This document shows, one piece after another, positions 12,391 to 22,158 of a stretch of 64,000 nt of DNA. Every line of letters starts with the position of its first letter. Position 1 is the stretch's first letter. The notes beneath the pieces were generated by a model that did no database searches, was not told where the DNA came from, and worked only from the letters and a program-made list of their open reading frames with translations. The DNA comes from Amoebidium appalachense (Eukaryota; Protista; Ichthyosporea). Where the stretch lies: NCBI GenBank assembly GCA_963693365.1, contig CAVNZM010000009.1, forward strand, positions 7,483,408 through 7,547,407, in the 5' to 3' direction. The translations under genes were made by a program, and so were the position numbers.

Positions 12391-12702
12391 TTATGGTCTA
12401 GACCCACGCTTTGTCGGTGGAAGTTTTTGCTGTGGTACTAATTTTGGCGATGAGAGCCGTGGGCTCGATTGTGACTGTCGGGGGGGACTCATTGGTTTAT
12501 CAAACCCCCCCGATTCTTCGGTTACCAAATCCGTAAGCGCAGTTATAAGTCTTCGTTTTTCATCTTTTGTCCGGGACATTATAGCGTCGCATTCCTTTAA
12601 CTCTCTCTGTGTGGGTGGATTGGATTGGAGTCAGCTTTTCATGTCCCCCCCCCCCCCCCCCCGGGAGGCCTCCCCCCCCCCCCCCCCCCCCCCCCCCACC
12701 CA

Positions 12703-12735
<33 letters not shown>

Positions 12736-13271
12736 GTGACCACCCAGATCTTCACACGAGAGAGCTCGAGAAGGGATGTGTGTGTGTGTGTGTGTGTGTG
12801 TGATGAGTGAGTCAAGAATTATATAGGTGTGGATGCCACATGCCTGTAAACAAAGAATTCTGTGTCCTGTATGCACCCGCTTCATCCCTGCTTCTGCAGA
12901 CTCGTGCGTCAAAGTTTTCTTTGCTTGTATACAGGGGAAGAGAGAGGGGGGGGGGAGGGGGGGGGGGGGGGGGAACGGAGGGAGGAGAGTGGAGGGGGAG
13001 GGGGGAGGGGGGGGGGGGAGAGAAGGGAGAGAGAGAGAAACAATAGAGACAGAAAAGAGAAAGAGATCGAGAGGACGGGGAGGACGGGGGGGGGGGGGGG
13101 GGGGGGGGGGAGGAGGCAAGAGCGAGGGAGACAGAGAGAGAGAGAGTGAGAGAGAGAGTGTGTGTGTGTATGTGTGTGGGTGTGGGTGTGCCTGTGTGTA
13201 TGTGCGTGTGACTCCGCGGGTAGGAGGAGGGGTGTGAGAGGGGGAGGGTTGGGGGGGGTGGGGTAGGGTGT

Positions 13272-13302
<31 letters not shown>

Positions 13303-13442
13303 GGGGGGGGGAGGGGAGGGGGGGGGGGGAGGGTAGGAAGAATGAGGCTCACCTCGTTGAGTTCCTGTAACAGCTTTTCCAAAAGATGAAGCGGGAGTGA
13401 ATTGTACTGTTGGTGTTAGGTGTGATAATGGTGAGTTTATGC

Positions 13443-13518
<76 letters not shown>

Positions 13519-13666
13519 TGTGGTCATGTGTGTGTACATGTGCGTGTGTCTCCGTGAGTGCTTGTATCTGTGTGCGCACATGCTGTTTTTGCCCCTCCCC
13601 CCCCCCCCCCCCCCCCACCCCCCTCTTTACAACTTGATTTCTACGCTTTTTTATTACGTTTAAGTC

Positions 13667-13697
<31 letters not shown>

Positions 13698-13911
13698 AGG
13701 GGGATGGATAAAAGTGACACATCGTAGGAGGTGGTCAGATACCGAGCAAATAAATCTCAAGGAGCATTGTCGGGGAGAAAAAAAAATTTGGGGGGGAAGG
13801 GGGAGGGGGGCTATCGGGGTGAGATAATGGTACGCGAGAGGCAGGGCATAGGGGGGGGGGGGGGGGGGGTTATGAGGTAGAGGGCCTCAAAAAGAAGCGG
13901 TGGCTTTGTGT

Positions 13912-13965
<54 letters not shown>

Positions 13966-14476
13966 AGATAACACTTCGGCATGCATAGGCAAATCCTAGA
14001 ATATAGAACGTGATCAGATCCCGTCCCCAATGGCTCGACCCCCAGGGAAGGGTGGAGTTGTGTGTGTGTGTGTGTGTCTGTTGCATGTATGTGTGTGGTA
14101 GGCGGGGGGGGGGGGGGCATTTGGAACGACCATTAAAAGCAGGTGGGCGGGTAGACAGTATGTGCATTCGGGGGATGGGAATCTTACATCAGAGGAAGGG
14201 GGAGTTGTGTGTATGCTGGGGGTGGGGGTGGGGGGGTGTTTACGTCCGGAAGGGTGGAGGTGTGTGTGTGGGGCGGAGAGCTCGGAGGGGGGGGGGGGGG
14301 GGGGGGGGGATGTGGTGGTGATGGTGGCAGGGTTTTTTCTCTTTTTTTTTTCTTTTTTTTTTTGGAGGGGGAGGGGGGGGGGGTTGGGGTTTTTCTAACA
14401 CGTTTACAGGGTAAGAAGTACACAGAGTCACTAAGGAAAACAGCAGGGAGACGGAGGAATACAGAGGAGGGGAGCT

Positions 14477-14510
<34 letters not shown>

Positions 14511-14754
14511 CTTACATCGATTTCCGACGGGTCCTTTGACAATGCATCTTCCGTTGTGTTCTCAGAAATTTCAGGAAGAGACGTGTTGCTTTTTGATAAG
14601 CCTTGTAGTTCAGGGTCGTTGAACACTAGGGCGAGAGGTTTCCGTTGTGGTGTGTGTATGTGTTGGCTGTGTCGGCGTGGAACGGGCGAGCAGATACCTT
14701 CGTCTACTCGGTTGATGGCACTGAGGACTGTGTGTGTGTGTGTGTGTGTGTGTG

Positions 14755-14790
<36 letters not shown>

Positions 14791-14816
14791 AGAATGGGGT
14801 GGGCGGGTGGGGGAGG

Positions 14817-19017: not shown

Positions 19018-19048
<31 letters not shown>

Positions 19049-19304
19049 GCGTGCGTGTGCGAGTGTGTGTGCGAGTGTGTGCGTGAGTGTGTGCGTGTGT
19101 GCCTGCATGTGTGCCTGCGTGTGTGCCTGCGTGAGTGTGTGTGTGTCATGTGTGCAACCCAGCAGGCTGTGAGTGTACTGCAATTGGCGTATGTTGTACA
19201 TCTACCTTCCAAACCCTTTTTGCCCCCATGCTCCTCCATACGTAAAACCGCAGATGACTTCATCCCCCCCCCCCCCCCCCCCCCTCCCCCCCCCCCCCCC
19301 TCCC

Positions 19305-19335
<31 letters not shown>

Positions 19336-20012
19336 ACACACAAGGGGGGAAAAAATGAAACCAAAAAAAAACAAAAAACCTATTTCCCATGCAACCTATC
19401 ATTCCGCACCCCTGTCACGTCTGCCGACCCTATCACATCCATCGAACCCAACCTCCGGGGGGAGGGGGGGTGGGGGGGGGGGGGGGGGGAGGGTTGAAAG
19501 CGTCATAAAGTACGAAGTACACATAAACAACGGGCAACACCATGCTAAGTGCAAACCACACATAAAGAGTAGGCATAATAAGCAGAGCCCATCCTCCGCC
19601 GGGGGGAGGGGGGGGGGGGGGGGAGGGGAGGGGCGTTGATTTATCCACAATACCCTAGTTTCGATCCACGCTGGAGGGTGGTGTGCGTGGTGGTGGTGGT
19701 GGTGGTGTGTGTGGGAATGCGGATGGGTGGGTGGGGGTGAGGGAAAAGGAGAGGCGGAGGGGGGAGGGGGCATATGCATACAATGACGTCACCCTTGTAG
19801 TATTCGAGCACGGGCTGAACCCCAATGCTCTGATCCTTCAAGACAAACAGCCGCTTGTGCCATATCTGCGCACCAAGAATGTCTGACCGCTTGAGAAGGT
19901 AGCCTGCCTGTGAGGTGTACGTGTACACGAGTGTGCGTGTGTACGTGTGTAGGTGTGTTCGTGTGTAAGCGCACGCACACACGCACAGGTGTGTGTGTGC
20001 GCGCGCGCGCGC

Positions 20013-20071
<59 letters not shown>

Positions 20072-20948
20072 TGCGTTTGTGTGTGTACGTGTATGTGTGT
20101 CTGCGTGCGCGGCAACAAAGAAACGAGAAGTAATAGGACGGGGGTATGTGAATGCTCTGTGTGAAAATCTATGCCGGCAGTTCCCGCGTTAAAGTCAAAT
20201 TGCTGTCAGAATCACGTCATTATGACGTCGAATACTGATTGGAGTTATAGATTAATGGCTTGTGTAGCTGTGTGTTTAGAAATCGCTTGGCCTAGTCAGG
20301 TCATCTCTCTCATCTCTCTCTTTCCCTAAGCTATAGGTCGGAATTCTGGAAATTCGAAATACCGGGTGTGAAGATTGTTAAAACCACAATGTGTCATTTC
20401 TCTCATCTCCCCTCTTCTTCTTTCTCAAAGCTATAGGTCGGAATTCTAAATTCGAAATCTTAGGTGTGAAGATTGTAAAATTAAAATGCGTCATTTCTCT
20501 CATCTCTCCTCTTCTTCTTTCTCTAAGCTATAGCTCAGAATTCTGGGAATTCGAAATCTTAGGTGTGAAGATTGTAAAAGTAAAAATCACGATGCGACTG
20601 AAGACCAAACTTGACGTATGACTTTTCACGGTAACTTATATAATGAACCTTCTTAGTGAGTAAGAAGAAAAATAGAGCTAATGTTTCAGCTATAGCACTC
20701 TGGCCTCTCAACATTGAGAAATACGAGCAGTTACAACCTATCGATACCCGTGATGTGCTCTCACACTCCCATTTTCATGTAGCCCTTTCTTCGATATAAA
20801 AAGATAATAGTGGATTTCTTATTTTCAAGACACTCAAAACATGTGAACTCCGACTATGGGAATCAGTGGGAAAGAAAAAACGGAAATCTTGAAGGAGGGG
20901 AGCGAGATGGGATGGACGGTTGTGAATTTGGAGAAGGGAAGAGAGGGG

Positions 20949-20983
<35 letters not shown>

Positions 20984-21044
20984 TGGGGAAGGGGGTATTT
21001 CTAAATAAAACGTCCCTCCCCAGCCTCCCCCCCCCCCCCCCCCC

Positions 21045-21079
<35 letters not shown>

Positions 21080-21538
21080 TGCCCCCCTTCCCCCCACGAC
21101 TTCCACCACCGAAACACCACCACCACCACCAGCACCCATGCAAAAGCAAACATGGGATGGGGGGAGGGGGGGGTATTTCTAAATAAAACGTCCCTCCCCC
21201 TCCCCCCTCCCCCCCCCCCCCCCCCTCCCGCCCTTCCCCCCACCACTTCCACCACCGAATCACCACCACCACCACCACCATCACCAGCACCCATGCAAAA
21301 GCAAACATGGGATGGGGGGAGGGGGGTATTTCTAAATAAAACGTCCCTCCCCCCTCCCCCCTCCCCCCCCCCCCCCCTCCCGCCCTTCCCCCCACCACTT
21401 CCACCACCGAATCACCACCACCACCACCACCATCACCAGCACCCATGCAAAAGCAAACATGTAAGTTTGCAACATCAGTAACGCGTAGTATGGAGGTGGG
21501 CGGGGGGGGGAGGGGGGGAGGAGGGGGTGGCTGTGTGT

Positions 21539-21569
<31 letters not shown>

Positions 21570-21820
21570 GGGGGAGCGAGGACGCGAGGAGATACGGAAG
21601 TGGGAGCTACTGCGTTAACAATTTGAACCGACCCCGGCATCACCCCCTGCAAAACACTATACTCTATATCCCTTCCCCCCCCCCCCACACACACACTCCC
21701 CGGTCTCCCTCCCTCCCTACCTTCCTGTCTCTCCCTCTCTCTTTCTCTCTCTCTCCCCCTCCCCCCCCCCCCCCCCCCCACACACATCCACCCTCTCTCC
21801 CTCCCTCCCTCTCTCTCTCC

Positions 21821-21851
<31 letters not shown>

Positions 21852-22158
21852 CCCCACCCCCCTCTCTCCTTCCCCCCCCCTCCCCCCCCCCCCCCCGTCC
21901 CCCCCCCCCCATTAGTCTATCAAAATGGAAGAAAGCCAGAACCACACAACACCACAACACCACATAACCGTCTCCATCTTGCACGTTTGACCTTTTTGAC
22001 CACATTTCCCAACTCTTTTGATGTCTCTCTTTAGTTTTTACCTTAACAAAATCCCGTCCTGGTGCCTTTTCATTCTCCGTGTTCAGCTTCACGGCATTTG
22101 CGAGCGCGCTTGGGACGGAGCCGGGGCCCTCGGAGGCCCCCGCGGGGGAGGCCGCCAT
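12391..22158 (-). CDS. PH-domain protein with C-terminal SARAH-like coiled coil; exons 22158(or 21977)-21969, 21646-21596, 19907-19782, 18872-18765, 17278-17182, 14727-14698, 14601-14516, 13406-13353, 12606-12391
   Basis: Spliced product: ...[57 protein letters not shown]...|[42 protein letters not shown]..., covering the PH hallmarks including the C-terminal W helix; then [43 protein letters not shown]. All junctions from exon 2 onward are GT-AG and phase-consistent. The start is ambiguous: ATG 21977 is in frame, whereas ATG 22158 needs one fewer G in the GGGG run at 21643-21646. Confidence 0.82.
18506..18753. repeat. Intronic minisatellite, 10 copies of a 24-bp unit
   Basis: Unit ggataaggacc(a/g)ccccctagtcga repeated head to tail with no spacers, just inside the donor at 18765. 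Confidence 0.95.
19491..19670 (-). repeat. Dispersed ~250-bp intronic repeat family, copy A (partial)
   Basis: Aligns by eye to 22719-22865 (aagtacgaagtacac...cataaagagta.gcataataagcagagcccatcc). Confidence 0.8.
20299..20582. repeat. Three diverged tandem units of about 100-110 bp in an intron
   Basis: tcatctc...aagctatag...gaattct...ttcgaaat...ggtgtgaagattgt.aaa occurs three times. Confidence 0.85.
20980..21460. repeat. Three tandem intronic units of about 150-180 bp
   Basis: ggggtatttctaaataaaacgtccctcccc...cttccaccaccgaa.caccacc...cagcacccatgcaaaagcaaacatg occurs three times. Confidence 0.9.

Follow-up and report, generated by a model that had tools for sequence, protein, structure and literature searches.

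A putative PH-SARAH protein encoded in the genome of the ichthyosporean Amoebidium appalachense, a candidate lipid-gated adaptor of the Hippo kinase

Three classes of SARAH proteins are named in the papers cited here: the Hippo/MST kinases, Salvador (WW-WW-SARAH), and the C-RASSFs (RASSF1-6). The Hippo kinase with its SARAH domain is reported to be older than animals (PMC10959527, PMC7035326), Salvador to be absent from Capsaspora and to have arisen after the Capsaspora split (PMC4761220), and RASSF to trace back to choanoflagellates. A related arrangement, the SKAP1-RapL (RASSF5)-MST1 system of T cells, divides the two domains between separate proteins: PI3K-dependent recruitment of a SARAH protein to membranes by a PH domain is reported, and SKAP1 can act as a competitor of MST1 for the SARAH domain (PMC3191007). 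Here, we describe a gene in a 64,000-nucleotide stretch of Amoebidium appalachense DNA (assembly GCA_963693365.1, contig CAVNZM010000009.1, positions 7,483,408 to 7,547,407 of the forward strand; hereafter, the window), whose product, P0001, carries on one chain a PH domain and, near the C terminus, a SARAH-like helix (residues 221 to 264). This helix is probably a divergent SARAH by ancestry: four signals, each modest by itself and partly independent of the others, converge on a single column, although the profile tests clearly failed.

The gene occupies the minus strand. Its seven coding exons, running from 22158 to 12391 (Table 1) and separated by long, repeat-rich introns, encode 309 residues, with a GT donor and an AG acceptor at all six introns. 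Together with the tyrosine kinase and the other genes of the window (Table 1), such introns would by themselves suggest a unicellular holozoan, perhaps an ichthyosporean, a group in which intron gain has been reported (PMC11286789). The sole protein returned by a search with the last exon, P0001, comes from EukProt, bears a transcript name in the Trinity style, and is identical to the joined translation at 309 of 309 residues. Splicing and poly(A) addition were deduced from the loose ends of contigs from two runs of one sample, X1 and X2, whose RNA origin is presumed, neither being on record as RNA. Contigs of both runs span 12244 to 12608; at 12244 they terminate in poly(A), and at 12608 they diverge from the genome into the letters of the exon at 13406 to 13353. 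Contigs equal to these in length and depth cover 22041 to 22196, continuing on one side into exon 2 (join of 22042 to 19907) and on the other into 23379 to 23396, where the loose end matches the upstream 5' untranslated region (UTR) exon once within the window. In an X1 contig, the first and last coding exons are separated by 597 letters, matching the combined length of the five inner exons. The segment 21915 to 22028 is covered by no contig, which on its own proves nothing. The gene is real, spliced, and transcribed.

A spliced gene at 12391 to 21977 had been proposed in an original prediction made from the window alone. The exon chain is confirmed by the identity of P0001 and by the X1 and X2 contigs, the junction of 13353 to 12606 by the spliced, poly(A)-ended contigs of both runs, and the 43-residue helix is encoded as claimed (residues 220 to 262). 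The upper coordinate of 21977 had to be abandoned, as the gene extends beyond it to a start at 22158 and a 5' UTR intron (Table 1); the ATG at 21977 lies inside intron 1 and opens just 21 codons unspliced. An eight-exon model that splices out 14697 to 14626 was likewise rejected, being at odds with both P0001 and the 597-letter span. A single-base difference from the window, at 22197 in the 5' UTR, is apparent in the contigs of both runs and explains why they match up to 22196 rather than to the acceptor.

The PH domain, which the original prediction had called complete, matches PF00169 over its whole length (residues 38 to 154, profile positions 2 to 104 of 105), with an E value of 6e-14 and 52.9 bits against a cut-off of 25.1; judged by this profile, its presence is certain. 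The closest solved structures are those of PLEKHA5/6/7, pleckstrin, and TAPP1 (2dkp, E value of 9e-5), and the likeness of these proteins to P0001 is confined to the PH domain. Phosphoinositide-binding PH domains carry a Lys...(Lys/Arg)-x-Arg motif in strands 1 and 2 and a Tyr in the third strand. Lys45, Arg58, and Tyr76 of P0001 are in place, His56 occupies the Lys/Arg position, and Lys57 adjoins it; Lys45 and Arg58 align with the Lys and Arg of the PLEKHA5 PH domain, and Tyr75-Tyr76 with its Tyr-Tyr. Binding to phosphoinositide membranes is likely for this domain.

The first of the signals in the helix is its register. From 33 residues named in PMC4089488 and PMC5663475, we built an interface profile of 17 columns, whose register the residues themselves set (offsets of 67 and 112). 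On P0001, this profile peaks at Tyr221 with a score of 28.3, against 8.2 for the runner-up position; the fit at Tyr221 is gapless, with 12 of the 17 columns positive. The score was reached by 1 of 20,000 shuffles of the region, 1 of 5,000 shuffles of the whole protein, and 274 of 20,000 class-keeping shuffles, and by 16, 114, and 152 of 20,000 synthetic amphipathic helices with periods of 3.5, 3.6, and 3.67, respectively. All of these are synthetic nulls, and since the helix had been chosen by eye, the P values are post hoc. Glu240, Glu243, Arg250, and Lys255 are identical or conservative at positions reported to form inter-chain polar contacts of MST1-RASSF5 (PMC4089488). The hydrophobic period of the helix peaks at 3.67, versus 3.5 for heptad coils.

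For comparison with the kinases, a set of Hippo SARAH sequences was assembled by scanning metagenome contigs with a motif derived from the MST1 residues named in PMC4089488. Of the 116 loci given by the scan, 78 (>30 bits) were retained as Hippo SARAH; another 37 scored lower, and 1 had no flank. From these, 22 loci formed alignment A1, 43 rows a second profile, and 44 rows a gapless profile. The gapless profile also peaks at 221, with a score reached by 3 to 7% of the amphipathic and class-keeping nulls.

The position of an intron provides evidence independent of amino-acid likeness. Among the 78 Hippo SARAH loci, 52 have a YAG acceptor directly before the Tyr221 column (the MST1-Leu436 column), and 26 read through, 25 of them cDNA-like and 1 other. 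The intron at 14515 to 13407 of the PH gene ends at the same column in the same phase (phase 0). We estimate the chance of a phase-0 intron at a given codon as about 2 to 4%, on the basis of 5 phase-0 introns in 308 codon gaps and 2 introns in the 45-codon element. The 52 Hippo introns are probably a single ancestral event. P0001 resembles the Hippo/MST1/2 SARAH (PF11629) in register and in where the intron falls as the element begins; it differs in having no kinase domain and no Thr-Met linker motifs, in its low score on the Hippo profile (see below), and in being without the Tyr and Pro that are invariant in the 22 Hippo rows.

Modelled alone, residues 214 to 271 reach a predicted local distance difference test score (pLDDT) of 92.6, with three helical residues, a break at Leu224-Pro225, and a 45-residue helix from Leu226. 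This predicted fold matches the layout of a SARAH domain, about 45 to 50 residues near the C terminus made of a short helix (h1), a kink, and a long helix (h2). In a VIA comparison against 48,161 chains, the RASSF5 SARAH (4oh8_B) aligns with the model over 46 residues without a gap (model 6 to 51 on chain 2 to 47), at a root mean square deviation (rmsd) of 1.0 Å, 15% identity, and a Z score of 5.3, a value shared with generic helices that places it 39th. Thus it is not the Z score but the low rmsd across the kink that sets this match apart. Provided that Glu412 is the last residue of the 4oh8_B chain, as given in the paper, Tyr221 aligns with Trp369, in agreement with the register of the interface test. 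The other 25 of the 26 listed matches that include the kink have an rmsd of 2.5 or more, a figure raised by their longer alignments; the best 50 matches listed include neither an MST nor an SAV1 chain. A Foldseek search with the helix found no SARAH, only one unrelated match and, on a second look, none. The single-sequence model of the full-length protein is poor (pLDDT of 42.5, helix broken at 249 to 251), and its Foldseek matches are meaningless.

The likeness extends to the organization of the C-RASSFs, as seen in RASSF5/NORE1 (4oh8_B). Both are non-catalytic and end in a short helix, a kink, and a straight, Pro-free long helix; RASSF5-like columns in P0001 comprise an aromatic residue at Trp369, Leu at 377, 381, 384, 406, and 410, Glu at 388, and a basic residue at 398. 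P0001 departs from the C-RASSFs in carrying PH where they have RA (and C1/LIM) and Thr where RASSF5 has Tyr399, in giving no match to PF16517, and in extending about 45 residues past the helix as a tail. Compared with SAV1, 5 of the 7 reported MST2-binding positions are identical or conservative (Glu243, Ile247, Lys255, Leu258, and Leu262), and membrane recruitment of the kinase is a property that we propose for P0001 as well; unlike Salvador, P0001 has no WW match and no PPxY motif and misses the other 2 of the 7 positions.

The last signal is a predicted complex. Folded by ESMFold2 without an alignment, the helix and a stand-in partner, the Hippo SARAH of locus L007, score 0.55, against 0.00 for the best of three controls, but at 0.60 or below, a pair that was not already likely is wrong more often than right (5 of 78 solved complexes; all 4 passing mismatches of 180). 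The mark that this score passes was reached by 51 of the 78 solved complexes and by 2 of 108 mismatched pairs. The runs agree in 93% of contacts, and the partner has a pLDDT of 81. The score may reflect memory of solved SARAH dimers, and the controls contained no amphipathic helix. The model thus lends weak support to pairing of the helix with a Hippo SARAH, through an interface and in an orientation that the score does not specify.

Several results weigh against the SARAH assignment, in addition to the probable single origin of the Hippo introns and the limits just given for the structural ranking, the gapless profile, and the complex. SARAH profiles of two kinds were applied, the Pfam families and our Hippo SARAH alignments. 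Neither the whole protein nor the helix alone matches PF11629 (Mst1_SARAH) or PF16517 (Nore1-SARAH). The profile of 22 Hippo SARAHs gives the helix 4.7 bits, below both known adaptors, RASSF5 (17.9 to 18.7 bits) and human SAV1 (14.3 bits); the unrelated SET reaches 14.6 bits on the same profile. On the 43-row profile, the helix scores 3.3 bits, equalled by 386 of 5,000 shuffles and by about 40% of synthetic helices, and hhalign aligns it to the Hippo alignment with a probability of 1.3%. At the interface, Thr251 replaces the central Tyr (MST1 Tyr466, RASSF5 Tyr399), the column with the largest computed binding loss, reported as 4.1 kcal/mol (PMC4089488), and Arg239, Cys244, Glu254, and Leu265 also mismatch the profile. 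Outside the helix, His56 departs from the lipid motif.

All 8 Hippo SARAH loci checked match PF11629, and on PF16517 (cut-off of 21), 6 of these 8 score 13.5 to 20.2 and 2 are not listed. Since no Hippo SARAH checked reached the Nore1-SARAH cut-off, cross-class recognition of SARAH sequences is weak in general, but the P0001 helix falls below both known adaptors. Among the C-RASSFs themselves, the RASSF6 SARAH is reported to be only about 20% identical to that of RASSF1A/NORE1 (PMC2586335), yet all six C-RASSFs are reported to co-precipitate with MST1 (10.1101/2020.02.05.923433), which we count in favor of a SARAH identity for the P0001 helix. Locus L023 (1 to 978; P0017) encodes a divergent Hippo kinase whose SARAH is without the usual N-terminal Asp-Phe-Glu-Phe and scores 44.8 bits on PF11629 (profile 6 to 48).

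Searches for relatives add no support for conservation of the helix. Word-index protein searches returned P0001 alone, whether made with the last exon among longer proteins (57 candidates), the whole protein (1,433), or residues 216 to 266 (3). A phmmer search of 1.84 billion representatives of 50% clusters gave 16 matches, namely P0001 itself and 15 others; the best-matching stretches of these 15 end by residue 203, none lies over the helix, and none of the 15 has a Pfam SARAH. Neither type of search gave a sequence match over the C-terminal part of P0001, and no orthologue was found in these searches. A sequence search of the PDB with the helix gave 0 matches at E values up to 10. P0001 is not filed in the Pfam SARAH families and, because it has no WW match (Pfam scan, E values up to 10) and no Pfam RA or kinase match, it is not Salvador, RASSF, or Hippo; Pfam C1 was also unmatched. 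We found no paper on a PH-SARAH protein in the open-access literature that pairs SARAH and PH terms, judged mostly by titles and the starts of abstracts; an unremarked PH-SARAH entry may exist in InterPro or PROSITE.

We weighed three other explanations. The first, rather unlikely, is that the helix is a generic amphipathic coiled coil, SARAH-like by convergence, and that P0001 is an ordinary PH adaptor of the PLEKHO1/IPCEF1/CNKSR type. The lack of a profile match, the tied structural score, and the by-eye choice of the helix all fit this explanation, as do the nearest ESM Atlas clusters of residues 212 to 272 (CNKR2, PLEKHO1, and IPCEF1, at 0.75 to 0.79), which are a lead only, because shuffled proteins can attain that level; a search excluding PH clusters gave no usable match. 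It is opposed by the 3.67 period, which is not that of a heptad coil, and by the fact that a single SARAH column holds the kink, the top-scoring register, and the intron, whose position has a low chance probability.

The second explanation, which we consider improbable, accepts the homology indicated by register, fold, and intron but holds that the helix no longer serves Hippo and acts in self-association or with another helix partner, making P0001 a PH membrane scaffold. Its polar Hippo-facing columns have drifted (Thr251, Glu254, and Leu265), and its profile score is far under those of the known adaptors. On the other hand, the four residues identical or conservative at inter-chain polar contacts and the weak complex support with a Hippo SARAH argue for continued pairing with the kinase. 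The third, very improbable, is that P0001 is a true SARAH partner whose sole effect is to inhibit Hippo by competition or as a sink, breaking kinase homodimers and parking the kinase on a membrane. In its favor, the SAV1 SARAH alone reportedly blocks MST2 activation in vitro, activation requiring the WW dimer (PMC5663475), P0001 has no WW match, and dRASSF is reported to restrict Hippo through competition with Sav (PMC2586335). Against it, in the RASSF5 model, membrane clustering converts the heterodimer to an activator (PMC6233353), and a PH domain could bring about such clustering.

The reading that we prefer is that P0001 is a lipid-gated Hippo adaptor, in which a phosphoinositide-binding PH domain is joined to a divergent SARAH that pairs antiparallel with the Hippo/MST SARAH; we hold this to be about evenly balanced. 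The original prediction is partly supported, by the gapless fit to the SARAH pattern (with Thr251 in place of Tyr), a modelled SARAH-type fold, an intron position shared with Hippo genes, and a weakly predicted binding to a Hippo SARAH; the SARAH profile match that it had named as a check did not appear with the Pfam families or the Hippo alignments, and its adaptor role is a proposal. Beyond the sequence, we infer every step of the mechanism by analogy. As with RASSF5, a heterodimer of P0001 and the kinase would displace the kinase homodimer and, P0001 being devoid of a second, WW-like site for dimerization, would hold the kinase silent in the cytosol. Where the lipid of the PH domain is made, PH would crowd heterodimers on the membrane and allow trans-autophosphorylation of the kinase, PH substituting for an RA domain and a prenylated GTPase. 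RASSF5 has been modelled to activate MST upon Ras clustering on the membrane (PMC6233353); given this model and the block by the SAV1 SARAH alone, a quiet heterodimer switched on by phosphoinositide crowding would be the most likely mode of a PH-SARAH protein. The missing central Tyr points to binding that is weaker and exchanges more readily than that of RASSF5. In human cells, membrane targeting reportedly did not fully explain SAV1-dependent activation (PMC5663475), which counts against this reading.

Somewhat short of even is the broader possibility that P0001 represents a fourth SARAH class, PH-SARAH, arising from a Hippo-derived exon in unicellular holozoans and linking a phosphoinositide signal directly to the Hippo kinase. 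If so, PH-SARAH would serve as the adaptor in a lineage that branched off before Salvador, and SARAH exons would have been shuffled onto differing membrane sensors (PH, RA, and WW) more than once. As a small, expressible protein, PH-SARAH is a candidate for an early-lineage partner of the Hippo kinase SARAH and may offer a direct lipid-to-Hippo link. It would also exemplify divergent SARAH proteins that may escape profile searches.

Table 1. Coordinates of the PH gene and of other features in the window
Feature	Coordinates	Strand	Remarks
Upstream 5' UTR exon, 3' end	23377..23396	minus	5' limit ~23900 if unspliced; GT donor 23376
5' UTR intron	23376-22208	minus	From contig loose ends and GT donor
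Coding exon 1 and part of 5' UTR	22042..22207	minus	ATG 22158; residues 1-39
Coding exon 2	19782..19907	minus	Residues 40-81; first PH strands, including Lys45, Arg58, Tyr76
Coding exon 3	18765..18872	minus	Residues 82-117; PH middle, ~12-residue insertion versus PLEKHA5
Coding exon 4	17182..17278	minus	Residues 118-149; final PH strands and helix
Coding exon 5	14516..14727	minus	Residues 150-220; PH helix end and linker, little predicted structure
Intron, phase 0	13407..14515	minus	Acceptor directly before Tyr221
Coding exon 6	13353..13406	minus	Residues 221-238; short helix, Pro225 kink, long helix start
Coding exon 7	12391..12606	minus	Residues 239-309 and stop; remainder of SARAH-like helix to ~12529, then Pro/Ser/Lys-rich tail
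3' UTR	12244..12390	minus	Poly(A) added at 12244
Intronic tandem array	18507-18762		24 bases x 10.6, 97% matches
Intronic tandem array	20306-20585		97 x 2.8
Intronic tandem array	21036-21461		152 x 2.8
Reprolysin-like M12B metalloprotease, then FN3 domain	3301-5314	minus	
COX17 gene	24948-25678	minus	Two exons; directly upstream of PH gene
S-adenosylmethionine decarboxylase exons	31945-34433	minus	
Possible tail exon of receptor tyrosine kinase	51356-52054	minus	Several Tyr motifs
Tyrosine kinase (TK) exons of likely receptor tyrosine kinase	54689-54940, 53078-53299	minus	
Cys-rich exon	57441-58256	minus	Upstream of TK exons
PMP repeats (parallel beta-helix type)	60442-60708, 63586-63939	minus	Upstream of TK exons

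Elsewhere in the window, a plus-strand stretch at about 9650 to 10330 looks by eye like a decayed retroelement, with a protease-like motif near 10070 to 10110 and no Pfam match in the frames tested. The minus-strand region from 51356 to 63939 likely encodes a receptor tyrosine kinase, as suggested by a Pfam PK_Tyr_Ser-Thr match (1.3e-25) and the motifs HRDIAARN and PARWMA.

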